Virus record (IMG/VR): IMGVR_UViG_3300037189_022865
Span: 26,597-90,596 of that record
Length of the DNA stretch: 64,000 nt
Direction: 5' to 3' (one strand)
Source: a virus
The notes beneath the pieces are model-generated. The model did no database searches and was not told where the DNA came from. It saw only the letters and a program-made list of their open reading frames with translations. Below, in pieces: positions 4,730-27,987 of this stretch (its first letter is position 1; each line of letters starts with the position of its first letter). Made by a program: the position numbers and the translations under genes.

Positions 4730-4975
4730 ATGGAAGCTATCTTTTTTGTCCTCTTATCAACGATCGCAGGTTCGTTGTTTAAGCACTATCTGGAGCCCGT
4801 GGTGTTAAACAAAGCGGCTCATCTTTTCCCTCAATCTAATATCTTTAACACAAAACCAGAAACAAAAGTAGAACCTACGGAGTTTAATAACGTAAGGTTT
4901 AAGCGCACTATCAATGGATATACAACAATCTATGTTTCGAGTCCAACACGGACAGATACAACCTACGTCAGGTAA
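4730..4975 (+). CDS. Small membrane-associated hypothetical protein
   Basis: Hydrophobic N-terminus MEAIFFVLLSTIAGSLF. Confidence 0.5.
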   Translation: MEAIFFVLLSTIAGSLFKHYLEPVVLNKAAHLFPQSNIFNTKPETKVEPTEFNNVRFKRTINGYTTIYVSSPTRTDTTYVR

Positions 4976-6794
4976 AGAACTCACCAAAGAGATCAAGTCC
5001 TGAGACATAATAGCTTTAGATACAGAGGTAACTGGAGATTTTGATAATATCTTTGATAGAAGAATTGTCATGCTGCAGTTTGGTAACAAAGAAGTTCAGT
5101 ACATTATAGACACAAGGAAAGCGGACCCTACTAAGCTCCTCAAAGAATTATCCAAGAAAAAGATCATAGGTCACAACATTAAGTTCGACTACCAAGTTAT
5201 AAAGACTAACTATGGGATTGAGCTTGAAGATCTATTCGATACCATGCTTGCAGCACAAATACTGGAGTGTGGGATGGATGAGGAGAAGGGACATTTTACC
5301 CTAGAGCAAACCGCTAGACGCTACACAGGGTATCACTACTACTCCAATCAAGGTAACTTATTTATTCCAGCAGTTACCAAAAAGATAAGGAGTTCTTTTT
5401 CTAGTATAGGAGATAAACCGTTTGAGTTAGAGCAGCTCTATTATGGAGCTCTTGACGTTTCGGTTGCATATCTCTTGTATGAGAAACAGAAGATTCAGCT
5501 TGAGAAAAATGAGCTTGAGTCAACAGCAGAGCTAGAGTTCAACTTCGTGAAAGTTCTTGCTGATATGGAATTGAGTGGTGTATATCTCAACCAAAAACAG
5601 TGGTTAGAGAATTATCGCAACACACTACAACAAACCGAAGAATTGCGAAAGAAACTGGAGGAGTATCAACAACTAAACTGAAACTCCCACAAGCAGGTTT
5701 TACCTGTACTCAAAGAGCTTGGTGTTGACGTGTCGATTATAGACAAGAAAACAGGTGAGATAAAGGAGTCTGTATCTCGCGAAGTCTTAAAGAAGCAAAC
5801 AGCTAAGGCTGGTATTCTGAAGACTTATCTTGACTATAAGCTTTCCCAAAAGGAATCATCTACCTATGGTGAAAAGTTTTTAAGGCACGTCAACCCAACT
5901 TCTCAAAGAGTTCACTCTTCTTATATGCAAATTATGAGAACTGGAAGAACTTCTTCTACTTCCCCTAATTGTCAATCTATTAAGAGGGGATCTATATACC
6001 GATCAGCATTTCAAGCTGAAGAAGGTAATACCTTTGTAGGTGCAGACTTCTCTAATATAGAAGCAAGGATACTCGCTGATAAGTCTAATGACGAAAACTT
6101 TATTAACATCTTTATAAACAATGGTGATTACCATTTAGAAACTGCTAAGCTAGCTTTTGATAATCCTAATCTAACCAAAGGATCTGAAGAAAGACAGTTA
6201 GCAAAGACTATTAACTTCGCAATTGCTTTTGGTGCTGGAGCTAAGAAAGTATCAGAAGGTGCTGGAGTTACTTTACAGAAAGGAAAAGAACTATTAAATA
6301 AAGTTTATACTGCTTTCCCAAAACTTAGTCCTTACTTTATAGAGATGGGTAATCTCACAAGGGAAAGAGGATATGTTGTGTGTAATGAAGTATCAAAAAG
6401 AAGAAGTTATATACCGTTTTATAATGAATACTTAGAAGCTAAGAAACATTATAACTACTTTAAAGCAATGGGTTGGGATCCTCATCCTACTATTGCATCA
6501 GCATATAAAACTTGGGATTCTAAAATACAAAGATGGTCACAAAACTTGCCTGTCCAAGCTACCGCTGCTGACATAGCAAAAGCCACCTGTATAGAACTCA
6601 GAGAGAAGTCTAAAAAAATTCCATTCAATCTCGTTTTATTCGTACATGACGAAGTTGTAGTAGAGTGCGAAAAAGAACGCGCAAACACTATATCTAAGCT
6701 TATTGAAAAAACAGGATTAGAATGCTCGAAAAAATTCCTGAATCATTTAACAGTCCCTGCAGAAGCACACGTATCTTCGCAGTGGGAAAAGTAA
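4914..6794 (+). CDS. polA: Family A DNA polymerase with 3'-5' exonuclease, 626 aa (TGA=Trp at 5001, 5679)
   Basis: ExoI ALDTE, ExoII HNIKFD, ExoIII YGALD, LN[W]NSHKQV, motif A DFSNIE, motif B RQLAKTINF, motif C HDE; fragments share one frame. Confidence 0.95.
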
Positions 6795-6798
6795 AACC

Positions 6799-7896
6799 AT
6801 GAACGAAGCAACTTTCTTTTTCGTCGTCAGTATTGCGGCTTTGGTCGCAGCACTAGCGTTCTTCTTTTACCGAGCTAAGAAAGACCCAGAAAATAAAGGT
6901 CTAGAGCCCGGTGCTATTCTTATAAAATTCTTTATAAAGTATCCTCTAACGGTGTTTATTACGATGCAGTTGGTTGCCATGATTTCAGAGGCAGCTCTTC
7001 TTGCATCTATTCCAGAGACACTGCTGAATGTAAGTGCAAGTATGGCAACGCATATGTTTATTGCGTTAGTCGGTGCACTGGGTGCATTTATGTTAACAAA
7101 ATACTTGGGTTCTTTTGTCTCCGCTTTCTTTAGTAAAGAAAAGTTTCCAGTGAAGATTTCTGTTATCATGTTAACTTTATGTTTATCCATGATTTCTTTG
7201 GTCTTTACCTTGGGTTCCCCGGTATACAATCTCTATGCAATGGCATCAAGATTACACCAAGTTCCACAACTTGAACTCTATCTTACCAGTCTTCAAGTAG
7301 AGTATCTGAATATGGACCCAAGAGTACTTGCCAAACTCATGCAGATACACAAAGTTCCGCTAGACTATTCTCCATTTCAGGCACTTCATCCCGGCATTGT
7401 AACTTCACTTGCATTATCTACCGCTCACATTTTTATTACAGTGTGGGAGGTATTGGTATCTCTTTTGTACGCATTGAAGAATGACGGCATTCAGCACGCA
7501 ATTCTCGGCGACTTTGCGAATACTCCGCCTAGAAAAGAAGAGAAGAAAGAGGAAAAGAAGGAAGAGAAGAAGGAAGAGAAGAAGGAAGAAAAGAAAGAGG
7601 AGAAGAAAGAGGAAAACATTGATGCTACCAAAGTTAAGGACAAGGTACAAGAGCTTCTCAAAATTCACGGTATGACCGATCCAAAGAGGATTGAGGATAC
7701 AGCTCAGAAACTTGTTCCTTACATCTACAAACAGGCTGATGCTGGTTCAGTGAAGAAAGTCGCTGACCTTATGAACTTCATTCACAAGTATCGTGAGGCA
7801 GAGAAGAACAAACAAAACACTCAACCTATTAAGGATGAGATTCACGAACTCGTAAAGGGCCTGACTAACGGCAGTTTCACCTTACCAAAAAACTAA
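6799..7896 (+). CDS. Multi-pass membrane protein with (KKEE)n charged helix
   Basis: About five hydrophobic segments, KKEE repeat, ends PKN-TAA on a slippery heptamer. Confidence 0.8.
   Translation: MNEATFFFVVSIAALVAALAFFFYRAKKDPENKGLEPGAILIKFFIKYPLTVFITMQLVAMISEAALLASIPETLLNVSASMATHMFIALVGALGAFMLTKYLGSFVSAFFSKEKFPVKISVIMLTLCLSMISLVFTLGSPVYNLYAMASRLHQVPQLELYLTSLQVEYLNMDPRVLAKLMQIHKVPLDYSPFQALHPGIVTSLALSTAHIFITVWEVLVSLLYALKNDGIQHAILGDFANTPPRKEEKKEEKKEEKKEEKKEEKKEEKKEENIDATKVKDKVQELLKIHGMTDPKRIEDTAQKLVPYIYKQADAGSVKKVADLMNFIHKYREAEKNKQNTQPIKDEIHELVKGLTNGSFTLPKN
7531..7616 (+). repeat. 86-nt pure-purine tandem repeat encoding KKEE units
   Basis: Only A/G, 12-nt period with synonymous variation. 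Confidence 0.9.
7887..7893 (+). promoter_or_regulatory. Putative -1 ribosomal frameshift heptamer A_AAA_AAC
   Basis: X_XXY_YYZ heptamer in the correct phase just before TAA; the -1 frame is open to 8603. Confidence 0.7.
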
Positions 7897-8603
7897 CGGG
7901 CGTAACGTGTGACTATTGTAACAACACTAAAGTAAAATCGGTGTACGCTAATACAACTAATCCATGGAAAGATTTTTACCATGGGGACTGTAGAAGCTGC
8001 TTCGAGGTTAGGTGGCTAGACGCTGCGGGGATATGTGAGAAGTGTAATAGAGGCAATTCAAAACTCTCTTTACGTACTGTAAACATTTGCGATAGTTGTA
8101 TTACTGCAAATAAAATATCCCCAATATGCAAAAGATGTGCTTCAATCGTTGAAGAATATGCTGAAGGTACTACTGAATGTATACAGTGTGCTTACGGTAA
8201 AGACTTTAAACCTGATCCACAATACGCCACTGGTGTGTGTATACAATGCAAACGCGTTACGCACTTAGACGGTGATGAAACCTGCTTAAGCTGCCACATA
8301 ATAAATTCGGCGGCTAATGCGCAAAACAACGACTGGGGTAACCTAAAAAGATGCGGCTGTGGAGAAGTAATTCACAAGAAGCAAAAGGTATGTCCCAATT
8401 GTGCAAGCAAACCTGTAAATTTGCGTAAGGACAAGCTGTGTCACGGCTGTCAAACGCACTTCAAACCAATATCTATATACGACACCTTCTGCATACCTTG
8501 TAAAGAAAACATTCATCGAGGTGTGTGTACCTCTTGTAGAGAGCTTTCCAACTCTATGGACTCAAGGGGCTGGTGTTCTAAATGCCAATCATCTAATGGA
8601 TAA
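7893..8603 (+). CDS. Cys-rich multi Zn-ribbon domain, probably a frameshift extension of the 6799 gene
   Basis: 14 CxxC/CxC knuckles including CDYC, which lies upstream of the first usable start codon (GTG 7941). Confidence 0.75.
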   Translation, partial: LTGVTCDYCNNTKVKSVYANTTNPWKDFYHGDCRSCFEVRWLDAAGICEKCNRGNSKLSLRTVNICDSCITANKISPICKRCASIVEEYAEGTTECIQCAYGKDFKPDPQYATGVCIQCKRVTHLDGDETCLSCHIINSAANAQNNDWGNLKRCGCGEVIHKKQKVCPNCASKPVNLRKDKLCHGCQTHFKPISIYDTFCIPCKENIHRGVCTSCRELSNSMDSRGWCSKCQSSNG

Positions 8604-10592
8604 AAGAACTCAAATGCAGGAGGAAGCAGTTGCCTCCTGAAAACAAAACAATGGATGGGGTACCCTGTTGATATATACGGGCGGGGGGAAGACACGATGC
8701 GGCTTAATGGCTTACCAAGATTTAGGCAAGCCCAGAACATTAGTAGTCACCTCCCGCCTGCCCATTCTAAACCAATGGAAAGAGGTTATGACAGGAACTA
8801 ATATAAAGTTTATGTGTATCCAATCTGCTTACAAACATAAAGGATATTACGATTTAGTTATAATAGATGAGGTTCATAGATCTTTATCACCTAAATATAG
8901 GGAAGTATTTAGCGGCATAAAAGCTAAGCATTTAATGTGCTTAACAGCCACACTTCCAGAAGAAGCAGAGTATGTAGAGTTCTTAGCTAAAACTTGTCCA
9001 GTAATTTATGAGAAGAAGCTAAAAGATGCTTTAAAGGATGAGATGGTTCCTCAGTTTGAGATATATAACTTTTCAGTACCTCTACACAAAACTATATCTG
9101 GTAAGTACAAACTCTTTGACAATAAGTTTACGCAGTCAATGATAAAACTTACTAGAACTCTAATGGATAATCCTAAACTGAAATCAAAATACAAAAATGT
9201 TTTTGAGTTAGCTCAAGCTGCTCAGTGGGCTTCTTTTGATAAGGAGACACAAGGATTATGTAAATCTTATTGGGCTGGAATGACTATGCGAAAGCAGTTA
9301 GTTTATTCTAATCCGGCGAAGCTAAAAGCAATTCGAGATATACTAAACCACATGGGGATGAGTCGCAAGTGGATAATCTTTACTAAGTCCATCGCATTTG
9401 CTAAAAGTTTGCAAGAGTATTTAGGAGGTAACACTGCTATATACCACTCAAAACTAAAACCAATAGAAAGAGAATTAAACTTAATAGCATTTGAACAAAA
9501 TCAGTTTAATATTCTTATAGCAGTTGACGCTTTAAACGAGGGATTAAATGTCTCCCAAGTAGAAGCAGCTATTTGTGCTGCTGGCGTATCCACAGAGTTA
9601 ACAAATTCCCAGCAGTTGGGTCAGTAATTCGGCCCGTACCAAGTTAATTCGGTGAAGCCTAAGTCGAAAGATATGGTAATACCGAGCCAAGCAGGAAGAA
9701 ATTCCGGGCGTGTGTAGAGCACATCCCCTTTGTCGGGGAGTAGTGAAATATCTGATAAATATTTTGCGAAACACTTGGAATTTATCAAAAATTGTTGTAC
9801 ATTTGTATAATGGAAAATATAATATGGAAATCTATAGTAGGATCTTTACACTATTCAGTAAGTAATACTGGGTTAGTTAGGAGAGATTCTCATGAGAAAA
9901 TGCACAACATAAATAAAAAACCTTTCTTGACAAAAGAGAAAATATTAGCACCTAGCACAAATAACACTAAAGGGTATAAAAGGTTACTTATAAAATATCC
10001 ACAACGTATTAAAACTAAATCAGTTCACAGATTAGTGGCTGAAGCTTTTGTACCAAACTTGATGGCTAAACCTCAAGTAAATCATATTGATGGGGATATA
10101 TTAAATAATCACTGCTCTAATTTAGAGTGGGTAACTAATGATGAGAATGCTGAACACGCAGCAAGGACCAAAAAACGTAAGCACAAAAAAGGTTCTTCAG
10201 TTGTGTGGAGCAAACTTACTGAAAATGAAGTTGCACAAATACCAGAGTTATTACAAAAATTTAGTGTTGCTGAAATAGCTAAACAATTTAATGTTAGTAA
10301 ATCTCTTATTCACGAGATAATCGCTGGGAGGACTTGGAGGCACTTAAACCTCTTTGAGCCTAAAGCAAGAAAGTGTGAAAAGTATTTTGATAAATTAAGA
10401 TATGTGCCGACCACTGCTGAAAAGCAGGAAACTTCGTAGTCTAATCAACTACTATAAAGAAGTTTACAAAAGCGAATTATACGTCCTGAAAAAGGAAAAA
10501 AGCCCGTGTTTATTAATCTGTACACAGAAGGTACGGTTGAGAAAACTTGGGTAGAAAAGAAACTTAAATCAAGCGGATTAAAAAGCAGATGA
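8596..10592 (+). CDS. SF2 (DExH) helicase; exons 8596-9621 and 10473-10592 (to 10673 if the last TGA is read through); TGA=Trp at 8638
   Basis: Motif I TGGGKT, II DEVH, III TAT, V LNEGLNV; motif VI QQLG|RIIR is restored by splicing. Confidence 0.9.
9775..9805 (+). promoter_or_regulatory. Bacteroidota housekeeping-sigma-type promoter inside the intron
   Basis: TTG (9775) - 20 nt - TACATTTG (9798-9805) matches -33/-7 TAnnTTTG; ATG lies 4 nt downstream. Confidence 0.6.
9810..10439 (+). CDS. Intron-encoded HNH homing endonuclease (NUMOD4-HNH type)
   Basis: WKSI..YSVSNTG.VR; VHRLVAEAF; VNHIDGDILNNHCSNLEWVT; C-terminal HTH-like segment. Confidence 0.92.
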   Translation: MENIIWKSIVGSLHYSVSNTGLVRRDSHEKMHNINKKPFLTKEKILAPSTNNTKGYKRLLIKYPQRIKTKSVHRLVAEAFVPNLMAKPQVNHIDGDILNNHCSNLEWVTNDENAEHAARTKKRKHKKGSSVVWSKLTENEVAQIPELLQKFSVAEIAKQFNVSKSLIHEIIAGRTWRHLNLFEPKARKCEKYFDKLRYVPTTAEKQETS

Positions 10593-11743
10593 GCAAGCAC
10601 GGTGTACGACCTTCCGAAACAAGCATTACTAAGTTTATCCGAAGCAACAGAGTCTTCCTTCCCCCGAACATAGGTAAACATCTCAGGGGAGCTTCTTTGG
10701 AAGACTTTTGCCCTTTTTGTTTGGCTGAACATAATAACAACACAATATTCTATAGAAAGAAGATAAGCGAGCCTCTGAGCATTCTTCTTAATACATACTC
10801 TTGTGATATGTGCAACGAGGAGATAGAGAAGAAATCTTCTGATAAAAACATGGAGGATATGTTTGAGGAGTTCTCTGTTAGAGCTGGAGTTAAAGCCATA
10901 CAAAGAATAGACGGGGTTGTGCATGAGGCAAGTTTCCCTAATGACACTCATAAATTCTATAATCACTTAAACCCAGATAAAGAGCCTTTTAGGATTACCC
11001 CAGACTGCTGCTTGTTTTGTCAAGTTCATCTAGGCGCAGCAAAGAACGAACAAGTAGATCCACAAAAGAAGTTGTTTGTAGAGTACTTTATACCTGTTGG
11101 TATGGAGATGTATCATCTTGACGGCGGACAAGTAAAAGTCTGCAGATCTTGTGATCTAGTCATGACTTCTAAGCTAAGTGATACATACATTGCTCACCTA
11201 CTAACTTTCTCAGGTATAGATATCTGCAAAAGATGTGGCGATCAGTATTTTGTAAATAATAGCGAGGTAGATAGTCGCAATGCTTCTCAAACTTTTGGGA
11301 AACATATGTGCCCAGAATGTTGTTATAATAATCTACAATCAGAGGATAAGCTCATGTATGAGGGGGAAAACCTAATGGTTCCTTACTCAAATATAGTTAG
11401 AGACGAGTTCCATAAAATACAAAGATTCGTAGATGTTAATTGTTCTTACTGCTCTTCTCCAGTAGCTATTGACTTAACAATGCACCCTGAGGAAGTTATA
11501 AACAAGCATACAGAAACTAACTTAAAGTTTATTTGCGACGATTGTATCTTCAGAGAGACTGCTCCTATAAACGTCTTAGTAAAAGACGACATAATTACTA
11601 GAATCTTTAATATAAACGATAAATTCTACATTAAAAGAGTTACTACTAAAGGCAAGTTCCTAAACTTTGATACCTCTTTAAATGCAGAAGAAGTTTTAAA
11701 GTTTTTATTAGCTGAAGAAAATGAACAACTTACACTATACTAA
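10589..11743 (+). CDS. Zn-ribbon-rich hypothetical protein
   Basis: Eight CxxC motifs (CPFC, CDMC, CLFC, CRSC, CKRC, CPEC, CSYC, CDDC). Confidence 0.8.
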   Translation: MSKHGVRPSETSITKFIRSNRVFLPPNIGKHLRGASLEDFCPFCLAEHNNNTIFYRKKISEPLSILLNTYSCDMCNEEIEKKSSDKNMEDMFEEFSVRAGVKAIQRIDGVVHEASFPNDTHKFYNHLNPDKEPFRITPDCCLFCQVHLGAAKNEQVDPQKKLFVEYFIPVGMEMYHLDGGQVKVCRSCDLVMTSKLSDTYIAHLLTFSGIDICKRCGDQYFVNNSEVDSRNASQTFGKHMCPECCYNNLQSEDKLMYEGENLMVPYSNIVRDEFHKIQRFVDVNCSYCSSPVAIDLTMHPEEVINKHTETNLKFICDDCIFRETAPINVLVKDDIITRIFNINDKFYIKRVTTKGKFLNFDTSLNAEEVLKFLLAEENEQLTLY

Positions 11744-25600: not shown

Positions 25601-27987
25601 CCATACTTTATCATTTGGTTGGTATTAGAATCTCTAGTTAACCAACCGGTTTTAAAATCTACAAAAGTAGCTTCCCCGTTTTGATGCACAAAAAGTCCGT
25701 CATATGTTGTAGCAAGTTTATTACCATCCTTATCTACCATTAAATCAGAAACTATTACACCTTCTGAAGAAACTTTGTCTCTTAGTCCTGGGGGTAGAGT
25801 ATTATCCAAGTCTACTATAACTCCCGCAGCTTCAAAAATTTTATCTAAATTATTTTTTATTCTTTTAATGCTGGGATGAGACTCTAATGAAATAAAATCT
25901 GCCTTAGTTGCTTTGGCATACTTAATAGCGTTTTGCTTAGCTTCTTCTTTCTTTTGTGGGTTTTGTTCTAAAACATATTGAAAATAAGCGTGAATTAACT
26001 TACCTTTATTTTTAAACTCATTTAATCTGGCTTCAATAGTTCTATACACATCTTGAAAAGTCAACCTTTCACCTTGTATAGTTATTGTTTCTTTTATTTC
26101 ATCTTCGTTTTTATCATAGATATTTACACCATTTCTAGCAAAAACTTTTTTCGCTTCATATTCAGCATCACTGTTAGAATAGCGTTTTTGCTTAGAAGAA
26201 AATTCTCCAACTTCCACATCCCCAACAAATGAAGTAATACGTTTAGCTTTTTCTCCAGTACTAATGTTTTCATAATATACAGAATTATCAAAAGAAGACC
26301 AGCCCTGTGCTTGTTTTTCTAACTCATTAATATAATCTATTTTAGGTTTCTTTTTAGCTCCAAGTCCATTGGCTACAGCTTCCTCGGCTTCATCTAATCT
26401 TTGATAAGCAGTTCTTATTACGTTATCAGAAATAGTCATACCCCTTTCAAAAGTATTTAAAACTTCTATTAGCGTTGAGGTAGCTGTCAAGGAATTTTTT
26501 AATCCTAAAAAGTTTCTAATATAATTTAAAAAGTATTTTAGATATAGATTATATTTATTACTTATAGCTTGCTCTCCTAAATACTGAACAACACTCTCTT
26601 CTCTATCCTCTATCCCATTGTTAACATAAGATTCTTTATAAAGAATTTCAAATGTTTGTGGAGAAGTTTGCATTAATGTAGATACAAATGGGTGATAATA
26701 TTCGTGAAGCGGAGTATCTTCGGTCGCATAAGCAACGTTAATTACTACTATCTTTTCTTTACCCCTGTTTACGTATTTACCTCTAAATTTTTGGTTTGGG
26801 TCATCTATTATTTGATACGGTATTGAAAATCTAGCAGAAAGCTCTTCTAATAAATTAGTTAACTTTGTACTAGCTTTTACCGGTAAGAAAACATTTTCAT
26901 TTGTTTCTGGAAATAAAGTAATTGTTTTTGGTGTAGAAACATTATTTTTTACATTGTTTTTTACAAATTCTTTAAAACCTGCGATGTCTTTATTAGAGCC
27001 AAGTATATGTATTTGATTTTTGTTTTTTACTATAAAGTTTCTACCTTCTTCAAATTCTTCTCCCCCAGGTCCAGCATCTTCAACTTGCGGCAATATAACA
27101 GAATCTCCTCCTAAAGAGTTTATGTACTCTAAAGCTACATCACCTTCACCACGAGTTCCTCCAGCAAATAGTTTAGTGTCTCCTACAACAGGATTTTCCA
27201 TATTAAGTATTACGGGAATATTTACACTAGCTCCTGTTTGAAAATATTTTTCTTTTTTAAGTAAACCTTCTAATTCTGGAAAACTTAAAACATACTCAAC
27301 TAACTTAACTACTTCTGAGTCAGTTAAATTAAACGATTTTTGTATATTATCTAGTAATTTATCTAAAAGAGTGTCGTCAGAACTTTTAGCAGCTACCCAA
27401 AGATTTGCTAAATCAATTGAAGAAAAAATATTAGCGACGTTAAAATCCCCAAAAAAGTAACCAGCTTGATTACTTTTATTATCTGTTATTTTTGTGGCTT
27501 TGTTTTTATCAAAATCTTGTGTTTTATACCAGTCCCCCAAAGTGCCATGGTACACCACATCCTGCATTTTACTTTGTGGAAAAATAGTATTTAGATATTG
27601 AGAGTACTGTTCTTTAGTTCCTACAGAAGCTAACTCCGGTGTTGTTTTAAATACATAATCTACACCTTCTTTTTTTTCTTGAGTAGCCATCATAGGACTT
27701 TCTACAATTACACTATCTCCTTCTAACCTAACGTTTAAACCATCAAATCTAGAATAAAAAATTCTAGCCATTAGTTCTTCTGAAAAAGTTGAACCCCCTA
27801 AAAAATCTGCATATTTAGTTCTAAAGAATACTGGGTTTCTTCGTATTGCAGTTAATATAGCATTGTAGACGGGTTCGTTAAACGAAGGAGTTACTGCTTC
27901 AGTATTATACAATACCAAAGCAGCTTCTTCTCCGTGCATTTCTACAAGCCTTCTCCACTCTTCTGAGTTTTTATTTGGACAGACCAT
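22684..27987 (-). CDS. Large polyvalent virion cargo protein (ART-like, HExxH and PD-(D/E)xK modules)
   Basis: Start MVCPNKNSEEW; VYHGT..GYFF..NQIHILG; LHEYYH; YDGLF..VDFKTG; C-terminal hydrophobic segments. Confidence 0.8.
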   Translation of the reverse strand: MVCPNKNSEEWRRLVEMHGEEAALVLYNTEAVTPSFNEPVYNAILTAIRRNPVFFRTKYADFLGGSTFSEELMARIFYSRFDGLNVRLEGDSVIVESPMMATQEKKEGVDYVFKTTPELASVGTKEQYSQYLNTIFPQSKMQDVVYHGTLGDWYKTQDFDKNKATKITDNKSNQAGYFFGDFNVANIFSSIDLANLWVAAKSSDDTLLDKLLDNIQKSFNLTDSEVVKLVEYVLSFPELEGLLKKEKYFQTGASVNIPVILNMENPVVGDTKLFAGGTRGEGDVALEYINSLGGDSVILPQVEDAGPGGEEFEEGRNFIVKNKNQIHILGSNKDIAGFKEFVKNNVKNNVSTPKTITLFPETNENVFLPVKASTKLTNLLEELSARFSIPYQIIDDPNQKFRGKYVNRGKEKIVVINVAYATEDTPLHEYYHPFVSTLMQTSPQTFEILYKESYVNNGIEDREESVVQYLGEQAISNKYNLYLKYFLNYIRNFLGLKNSLTATSTLIEVLNTFERGMTISDNVIRTAYQRLDEAEEAVANGLGAKKKPKIDYINELEKQAQGWSSFDNSVYYENISTGEKAKRITSFVGDVEVGEFSSKQKRYSNSDAEYEAKKVFARNGVNIYDKNEDEIKETITIQGERLTFQDVYRTIEARLNEFKNKGKLIHAYFQYVLEQNPQKKEEAKQNAIKYAKATKADFISLESHPSIKRIKNNLDKIFEAAGVIVDLDNTLPPGLRDKVSSEGVIVSDLMVDKDGNKLATTYDGLFVHQNGEATFVDFKTGWLTRDSNTNQMIKYGEEFGINDSRLSRAYLEKALRTVMLKEKFPDLKFRSIKLLVIDAMGNPTAMELDLEPYLFTIQNYYKTNHPKIHDEMEKKGLFKLSNYKGVTQSLIDLHSEISHLSRDEKLIYLKNKLSDLYLRSSKEQVERDPRKKALSIKYSQAILEIEKEPTIDLKSKTPDLGFFWKIKNFSDVDNPRIQVLHKVLLEAKQRLNIFSKNLEENHDNLFLKLVNERVGPNDKMNKAALKGLEMVHFASMATWNPILAAGVVAAHNAIASKTQMDTRDFYAFMWRKSDEIGGTGYYLNTKNTYVKNGKEVPMTKAEQDYRNYVHKTMKEEYNKFAKEIVGFDEVTRQPIYRYSSLGLPEEMPLDFMPRIPKSINEIREEEIKTSGYGAGLMGLKTTVGEEFKRSLNGFFEDKYGRGSEGIQFRYFKHTDSPGIVDAENHSFNGQIAFKMFMMSMKTKQEMDPLYDLARGVRNALDEELMESGEEARYSNTVQWLDDEIYTQILGRQKTEKVLTRAVRWKAGKLTEKVTGIKEGTDVRISEIEIVRWLRTSVSFLTLGFKVISPIRNGIYVTLQTISQSTKNIVTKGLSKIYGVDVEELGQIDLVGGKIVFNDYIAKAIMGKPEESKLWNIAKAINWLPDNYVISDEDIKKMEAVSKIGLGENAYAAYSLFENFSSLWHLAGLLKSTKVLDKDGNKISLWDAHDDKGGWNMGVRGVVENSDGTTTELKELTAMEIKALKRTHERVSGSYRKDEKIAMEASVWGDFLAQFQKHAFQYVKVLFGSKYRDRSIGKYVLVGKKPDGMPMYEWHSEILQGQIKIFFAALFAAIQGKHMDYMTGGDLGEATLKNARIRAMSSLINTLIWWLTMLAIYSWAFDDEEEKTPLGKSAARIVTDMSRFLSLKDILDATDKPVVSLEVANKIGKSTWALLTEGMSGEVDKQGWPKGLRGFLTLTPGYSSRSQIEQILGNDEDPSFLYGIYPLK

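Follow-up and report, generated by a model that had tools for sequence, protein, structure and literature searches.

A probable programmed -1 ribosomal frameshift joining a membrane protein to a zinc-ribbon array in the replication operon of an uncultured phage

How does a phage translate an open reading frame (ORF) that is rich in cysteine codons, lacks an ATG start, and emerges from the last codons of the gene before it? The question is raised by a locus in IMG/VR virus record IMGVR_UViG_3300037189_022865, of which a 64,000-nucleotide (nt) stretch, positions 26,597 to 90,596 of the record, was analyzed and is called the window here. At window positions 6799 to 8603, on the + strand, a gene for a membrane protein is followed by such a Cys-rich ORF, and a first-pass annotation, made from the letters alone, had proposed that a programmed -1 ribosomal frameshift fuses the two. 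Our analysis leads to the same reading. A programmed -1 ribosomal frameshift at the slippery heptamer A_AAA_AAC, positions 7887 to 7893, probably fuses the membrane protein to an array of predicted zinc ribbons, and we put the probability of this at about 85%.

The arrangement of the frames in the window is simple. The membrane-protein gene runs from 6799 to 7896 on the + strand and encodes 365 amino acids (aa) with the C-terminal end TLPKN. Its 3' end reads ACC TTA CCA AAA AAC TAA, with CCA at 7885 to 7887, AAA at 7888 to 7890, and AAC at 7891 to 7893, which places the heptamer in phase with the zero frame, and the zero-frame stop TAA (7894 to 7896) adjoins it. Both the bases and the codon phase from 7885 to 7896 agree with what had been claimed, an in-phase A_AAA_AAC directly before a stop. 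The -1 frame can be read without interruption from 7869 to 8600 and ends at a TAA at 8601 to 8603; upstream, it is closed by a TAA at 7866 to 7868, and therefore a shift from one frame to the other is possible only within 7869 to 7893. Counted from the heptamer, the -1 frame ORF (7887 to 8603, + strand) comprises 238 codons plus TAA, begins KKLTGVTCDYC, contains 14 Cys knuckles, and reads as a C-terminal extension of the membrane protein. The first ATG, GTG, or TTG in that frame is a GTG at 7941 to 7943, 18 codons past the start of the heptamer, and it is the start that gene callers use for a protein of 220 aa. The conserved first knuckle, CDYC, lies upstream of it. A frame scan thus upheld the earlier statement that the -1 frame has no ATG start and that CDYC precedes the GTG. 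The run of six A residues is identical in three further assemblies, L001 to L003.

A count over the window served as a control for chance. Genetic code 11 gives 79 stop-to-stop ORFs of 100 aa or more, of which only one has an in-phase X_XXY_YYZ at its end, taken as the last two codon positions, and that one is the membrane-protein gene. When TGA is treated as a sense codon, five more heptamer matches appear on four other ORFs (of 120), and their -1 extensions amount to only 10 to 67 aa, against 238 here. Neither the membrane-protein ORF nor the Cys-rich ORF contains a TGA, and both stop at TAA; the choice of genetic code therefore leaves the frameshift finding unchanged.

The proposed mechanism is as follows. 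Ribosomes translating the membrane-protein gene would reach A_AAA_AAC abutting TAA, where most would terminate and release the 365-aa protein. A fraction would slip back by one base, either by tandem slippage or by P-site slippage with the stop codon in the A site, and would read on in the -1 frame (...TLPKN-LTGVTCDYC...) to yield a predicted product of 601 aa, with a tail of 236 residues. The long form would begin with five transmembrane (TM) segments, continue through a (KKEE)n spacer and a C-terminal domain, and end in seven zinc ribbons, and the frameshift would fix the ratio of bare anchor to anchor with binding module. The two isoforms predicted earlier, of 365 and about 600 aa, follow from the conserved heptamer and -1 phase described below.

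DNA was available for nine lineages: the window with L001 to L003, L008, L009, L012, L013, L016, L017, L018/19, and L021/22. Over seven loci compared, a set that does not include L021/22, identity of the TM protein to that of the window falls from 54% to 27%. All nine lineages have an in-phase X_XXY_YYZ in the final sense codons of their TM gene. The gene ends in CCA AAA AAC TAA in the window and L001 to L003, in CCA AAA AAC TAG in L008 and L009, in TCA AAA AAC TAG in L012, and in GCA AAA AAC GGA TAG in L016 and L018/19, which makes six lineages with A_AAA_AAC. The three other heptamer types occur once each: A_AAA_AAG in L013 (TCA AAA AAG GCG TAG), A_AAC_CCT in L017 (ATA AAC CCT TAG), and G_GGA_AAC in L021/22 (AAG GGA AAC TAA TAA). 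The first base of the heptamer is supplied by CCA, TCA, GCA, ATA, or AAG. Since both the heptamer type and the codon that supplies its first base vary, the pattern and its phase have been kept while the sequence changed. The stop codon adjoins the heptamer in six of the nine lineages and comes one codon later in three. In every lineage the Cys-rich ORF lies in the -1 frame, with a length of roughly 135 to 359 aa and 8 to 19 CxxC pairs. The -1 frame of L012 becomes open just 3 nt ahead of the heptamer (permitted shift window, L012 positions 7107 to 7116), and therefore the two ORFs can be joined only at the heptamer there. A -1 ribosomal frameshift would explain the arrangement in all nine lineages. 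Conservation of the heptamer and of the -1 phase in homologs had been set beforehand as the check on the first-pass annotation, and its proposal of a programmed shift stands after that check. It had also named two outcomes that would speak against the proposal, a different length of the A run or homologs with an independent start and no slippery site; neither was seen. L008, L009, and L021/L022 do have a start directly before the first Cys, and they keep the heptamer too.

The same comparison bears on a trivial explanation, that a one-base insertion or deletion in the A run, whether an assembly error or a recent mutation, has split a single gene. Homopolymer runs are prone to such changes, and the two ORFs are contiguous. 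However, the same layout recurs in three other assemblies of this phage type and in eight more lineages whose heptamers differ, neither ORF is broken and both show constraint at the protein level, and no unsplit version occurs among 90 representative clusters of the TM family. The CDYC knuckle ahead of GTG 7941 has been preserved while its codons changed synonymously, from TGT GAC TAT TGT in the window to TGT GAT TAC TGC/TGT in L008 and L009. Because the arrangement is conserved, this explanation is almost certainly wrong.

A shift could in principle also arise during transcription. RNA polymerase would then add one A at the run of six, giving a fusion ...PKK-LTGV... without any ribosomal slip. 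Seven of the nine lineages have a run of six A residues at the site, and the product would be nearly identical to that of ribosomal slippage. Yet L017 (A_AAC_CCT) and L021/22 (G_GGA_AAC) have no six-base homopolymer and still carry an in-phase X_XXY_YYZ, and the phase is the same in nine of nine lineages, which polymerase slippage would not require. Efficient transcriptional slippage in bacteria needs about nine A or T residues. In addition, hairpins a few nucleotides downstream of the heptamer in four relatives suit a roadblock for ribosomes. Their folding z scores against shuffled sequences are -1.97 in L012, -2.04 in L017, -4.30 in L013, and -5.26 in L018, and for L013 and L018 none of 200 shuffles was as stable. 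For L012, L017, and L018, the stem begins 3 to 7 nt past the heptamer. The L013 structure has weak outer pairs from about 2 nt and a strong stem from about 21 nt. These tests addressed hairpins, with pseudoknots outside the search. Slippage by the polymerase thus appears very improbable as the source of the fusion.

Alternatively, the locus might encode two separate proteins, the Cys-rich ORF being initiated at GTG 7941, at a noncanonical codon, or by reinitiation past the stop, with the terminal heptamer a by-product of a conserved Lys-Asn C terminus. Gene callers do predict stand-alone Cys-rich proteins (P0001, 220 aa; P0002, 180 aa), a GTG (L008, L009) or an ATG overlapping the double TAA (L021/22) stands directly before the first Cys in some lineages, no fused homolog was found among longer proteins or the 90 representatives, and Lys-rich C termini are common. 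The positions of the starts argue otherwise. In six of the nine lineages, conserved Cys knuckles precede any ATG, GTG, or TTG of the -1 frame, the first of which lies 18 codons from the heptamer in the window, 91 in L012, 14 in L013, 16 in L016, 67 in L017, and 14 in L018. A motif Cys(x4-5)Cys-x-[HF]-Y, common to L012, L016, L017, and L018, is located a few codons past the heptamer, and in L012 and L017 any start lies far downstream of it. Independent initiation therefore cannot supply the conserved N-terminal knuckles in those six lineages, and after the stop there is no near-cognate codon that the lineages share. Nor does a conserved Lys-Asn end account well for the DNA: the codon that precedes Lys keeps its third base (CCA, TCA, GCA), and the AAA/AAC choice is kept as well, while neighboring Thr and Leu codons vary synonymously. 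The downstream hairpins, finally, would impede reinitiation rather than aid it. We regard two separately initiated proteins, with or without a by-product heptamer, as improbable and the programmed frameshift as the preferred reading.

A protein-level proxy agrees with the conservation seen in the DNA. A word-based search with the TM protein gave 11 matches, and a profile search of 1.84 billion representatives placed the family in 90 representative clusters at 50% identity. The representatives measure 226 to 441 aa, if two giant proteins that match in the charged part only and one 74-aa fragment are excluded. All 10 close homologs with a complete C terminus end in KN in the alignment, including P0012 at 32% identity (...TLPSKSKN). 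A dipeptide compatible with XXY_YYZ forms the C terminus of 49 of 87 family representatives, against a background of 10% in the same proteins; such a dipeptide lies one residue earlier in 16 and two residues earlier in 5. Asn is the last residue in 32 of the 87.

Several observations weigh against the frameshift. In 17 of the 87 representatives, the C terminus fits no heptamer in the last three positions, by this protein-level proxy; a search for DNA of such nonconforming family members (P0044 type) found none. In the window, the 100 nt after the heptamer fold with a z score of -0.84, and 38 of 200 shuffles fold as well, in line with the absence of a strong downstream hairpin remarked on at the outset. 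No significant structure was detected in L008 (z = +0.42), L009 (z = -0.79), L016 (z = -0.77), or L021 (z = +0.86), either, and the consensus fold of the window clade reaches only -7.4 kcal/mol. The starts directly before the first Cys in L008 and L009 (GTG) and in L021/22 (ATG) make a separately initiated zinc-ribbon protein possible in these three lineages. A Cys-rich profile run over longer proteins (1,950 candidates, none scored) retrieved no natural in-frame fusion, and none of the 90 TM-family representative matches is near 600 aa, which is weak evidence. The shift is predicted from sequence comparison. Published work on IS1 also reports that AAAAAAC alone gives a very low frameshift rate in Escherichia coli (PMC12428005). 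The same source describes the bacterial precedent, the A6C motif (AAAAAAC) near the end of insA followed by an insB without an independent start. Stimulation in the window clade may come from the adjacent stop codon alone. Rfam gave no match over positions 6500 to 11000.

What would the two parts of the fusion contribute? A hydropathy scan of the 365-aa protein gives five hydrophobic segments, at residues 1 to 27, 44 to 71, 80 to 104, 116 to 143, and 204 to 226, followed by a charged spacer and, last, a domain of about 90 aa at the C terminus. The (KKEE)n spacer occupies 7534 to 7614 on the + strand (codons 246 to 272) and consists of 27 consecutive Lys or Glu residues; the KKEE spacer described earlier is thus present, and its coding DNA proved to be a 12-nt tandem repeat of 6.4 copies at 7534 to 7610. 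Relatives have the spacer too, at variable length. From the positive-inside rule, applied by eye to the predicted segments, the N terminus is probably outside and the C terminus inside, which would make the zinc ribbons cytoplasmic. Neither PHROG nor PADLOC gives a match for the TM protein, and it has no credible Pfam or NCBIfam family. Matches to Serinc, MFS_1, and HyoA in Pfam/NCBIfam are weak and were judged spurious; the window protein does reach 26.5 bits with Pfam Serinc (PF03348; cutoff, 24), but just 1 of 60 family members gives a match, and we take the hit to be compositional. The Atlas gave no usable match for the TM protein, whose own model is poor (pLDDT, 0.57).

Two side observations concern the membrane-protein gene. 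In L009, an in-frame TAG at 788 to 790 falls on TM codon 72, a Gln codon in relatives (ASI-Q-EKD). No other TAG interrupts the four genes of this 2.8-kb contig, and a nonsense variant, an error, or amber suppression are possible explanations. In the three near-identical IMG/VR contigs (L001 to L003/L004 to L006), the zinc-ribbon ORF is 99% identical to that of the window, while the best segment of the TM protein is 74% identical, and divergence within the gene pair is therefore uneven; DNA identity over the whole 4.7-kb region is 92.6%.

The -1 frame product is built almost entirely around cysteines. From the heptamer on, it has 28 Cys in 13 CxxC and one CxC, so that the first-pass count of 14 knuckles was correct, and the CxC knuckle of the window is a CxxC in distant relatives. 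Fourteen knuckles would form about seven zinc ribbons. In an alignment of nine sequences (eight lineages plus P0002), 22 of the 25 invariant columns are Cys. Few close relatives of the ORF were retrieved: the three IMG/VR contigs, with 99% identity, and P0002, with 69%. Like the Pfam families DZR (PF12773) and DZR_2 (PF18912), the array has paired CxxC knuckles at ribbon-like spacing: DZR matches five of nine array members, all below threshold, at E values up to 0.1 (best, 5.5e-5), and DZR_2 matches three of nine. The window array itself reaches an E value of 0.054 with DZR and 14.1 bits, against a cutoff of 27.3, and we therefore speak of resemblance rather than membership. A search of the PDB with the zinc-ribbon profile returned chance-level matches only (E value of 0.19 or worse), and for a seven-ribbon array of this layout we found no family model and no PDB relative by sequence. 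Feature matches in the Atlas are double-zinc-ribbon-like, with scores of 0.81 to 0.87, and serve as leads only. Against GenBank phages, tblastn with the Cys-rich ORF, P0012, P0030, P0046, and P0044 gave no match, and a DNA search with the region gave only an unrelated 44-nt match.

Among known systems, IS1 insA/insAB' is the closest at the level of the site. Its heptamer is identical and lies close to the 3' end of the upstream ORF, the downstream ORF lacks a separate start, and the fusion protein is made only by slipping ribosomes (PMC12428005). It differs in that the product is a transposase and the arrangement regulatory, the stop is not adjacent, and a downstream pseudoknot is cited (PMC12428005). 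The phage case instead involves a membrane protein with a zinc-ribbon tail in a replication operon, and the window clade has no detectable structure. The frameshifts of lambda G/GT and of other tail assembly chaperones are similar in being conserved -1 shifts near the end of a phage gene that yield a short and a C-terminally extended isoform at a fixed ratio. The slippery site of lambda is G_GGA_AAG, to which the G_GGA_AAC of L021/22 is close. Lambda G/GT nevertheless belongs to another gene family and another protein type, and to a tail rather than a replication module. Tail assembly chaperones make up 2,397 of the 2,476 joined frameshift genes in SEA-PHAGES annotations (PMC10885494), and in the available part of that report, which presents PRFect, none is described as a membrane or zinc protein.

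A replication gene with a -1 shift is known from a bacterium as well. In E. coli dnaX, the tau/gamma pair arises at A_AAA_AAG with a downstream hairpin. Our case resembles dnaX in its replication-related operon, its A_AAA_AAR/C heptamer, and a stem-loop a few nucleotides downstream in L012, L013, L017, and L018. It differs in that the shift truncates the dnaX product, whereas here it would extend the protein by about 236 aa, and in that no upstream Shine-Dalgarno-like stimulator is evident here. In phage phi29, p16.7 and p1 are membrane-anchored organizers of DNA replication. They offer a functional analogy only, that of a phage membrane protein among replication genes with a cytoplasmic binding domain; they have one TM segment, no zinc ribbons, no frameshift, and no sequence relationship to the present protein, whose function is predicted.

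Literature searches aimed at a TM/zinc-ribbon frameshift in a replication operon found no description, supplementary gene lists lying outside the search. The mechanism is classic; as far as these searches show, neither the gene family nor its place in a replication operon has been described before. Annotated conserved phage frameshifts are almost exclusively those of tail chaperones (PMC10885494), and this one would lie in a replication module. The site would belong to a large uncultured phage family, spanning those 90 clusters and four heptamer types. If the reading is correct, gene callers misannotate the locus as a separately started protein of 180 to 220 aa and miss up to 91 codons. For the recoding field, the lineages would provide a natural series of sites that differ in whether a hairpin is present and in whether the stop adjoins the heptamer or follows one codon later.

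The neighborhood of the gene pair is conserved. The window has a + strand replication arm and a - strand arm that encodes very large proteins. A 4,011-aa protein has no PHROG or PDB sequence match. The order polA-TM-Zn-helicase holds in seven of seven relatives compared, and a further Cys-rich gene, CysB, comes next after the helicase in six of six relatives with a sufficiently long contig. Given the position of the gene in this conserved polA-TM-Zn-helicase-CysB block, we tentatively suggest that the long form might hold a replication component or DNA at the membrane, a role we consider well short of an even bet. It would be a concrete candidate for membrane-linked replication in putative crAss-like phages of Bacteroidota-type hosts. 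Full-length matches to PolA among GenBank phages are crAss-like (IAS virus, cr108_1, and crAss001), at an identity of only 26%, and crAss001 has no comparable TM-Zn pair after polA. The ATG of the helicase, an SF2 (XPB/Rad25-like) protein, is at 8596 to 8598 on the + strand and overlaps the stop of the Cys-rich ORF. In seven of eight lineages (the window, L008, L009, L012, L013, L016, and L017), this ATG lies -8 to +4 nt from the stop of the zinc-ribbon ORF, a layout typical of translational coupling, here to an ORF that would be reached by frameshifting. CysB (10589 to 11743) encodes 384 aa with many CxxC pairs and has no family match save a weak one to Pfam DUF7351, below the cutoff. Kinship of CysB with the zinc-ribbon array was considered and rejected (hhalign probability, 0.8%); the two are unrelated.

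Outside the gene pair, the genetic code does matter. The phage reads TGA as Trp, which the first-pass annotation had overlooked. PolA is one gene of 626 aa (4914 to 6794) only if the TGA codons at 5001 to 5003 and 5679 to 5681 are sense; the first precedes the DxE exonuclease motif, and the second aligns with TGG in L008, L012, and L016. Likewise, the helicase is readable only with TGA as Trp, with in-frame TGA codons at 8638 to 8640 and 10590 to 10592. Homology to the L008 helicase runs 15 residues beyond the latter TGA, which aligns with Trp and is therefore not the stop of the helicase; the ATG that starts the next gene overlaps this TGA (ATGA at 10589). Counted over aligned stretches in seven lineages (window positions 4914 to 11743, L008, L012, L013, L016, L017, and L018), TGA makes up 26 of 94 Trp codons in PolA and the helicase and 0 of 64 in the TM, zinc-ribbon, and CysB genes. 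Such gene-selective use of TGA would fit a scheme in which the TM, zinc-ribbon, and CysB genes are expressed before the phage begins to decode TGA. A two-layer translational program can be drawn from this, which we consider improbable: the TGA-free TM/TM-Zn and CysB products would first build a membrane site, PolA and the helicase, with one to three TGA codons each, would follow, frameshifted ribosomes would also deliver translation of the helicase, and the zinc ribbons would capture the helicase or DNA at a ratio set by the slip.

A few observations concern the source of the DNA and the helicase gene. In a sequencing-run index, eight runs contained at least half of the sampled words, with the labels metagenome, freshwater, or lake water, from which we draw no inference on habitat; one RNA run appeared with a share of 0.08, from which we draw none on expression. 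The contig L022 (JBKDBI010000286.1, 14.4 kb), of the G_GGA_AAC type, was binned into a Bacteroidota metagenome-assembled genome, which may point to the host phylum or reflect a binning artifact. An insert of about 840 nt at 9620 to 10470 breaks the helicase of the window at motif VI (...QQLGQ, followed by a stop), and no Rfam intron model matches the insert. The insert carries an HNH/NUMOD4 endonuclease ORF (9792 to 10439), after which the helicase frame resumes at 10467 to 10637; the helicase of L008 is uninterrupted.

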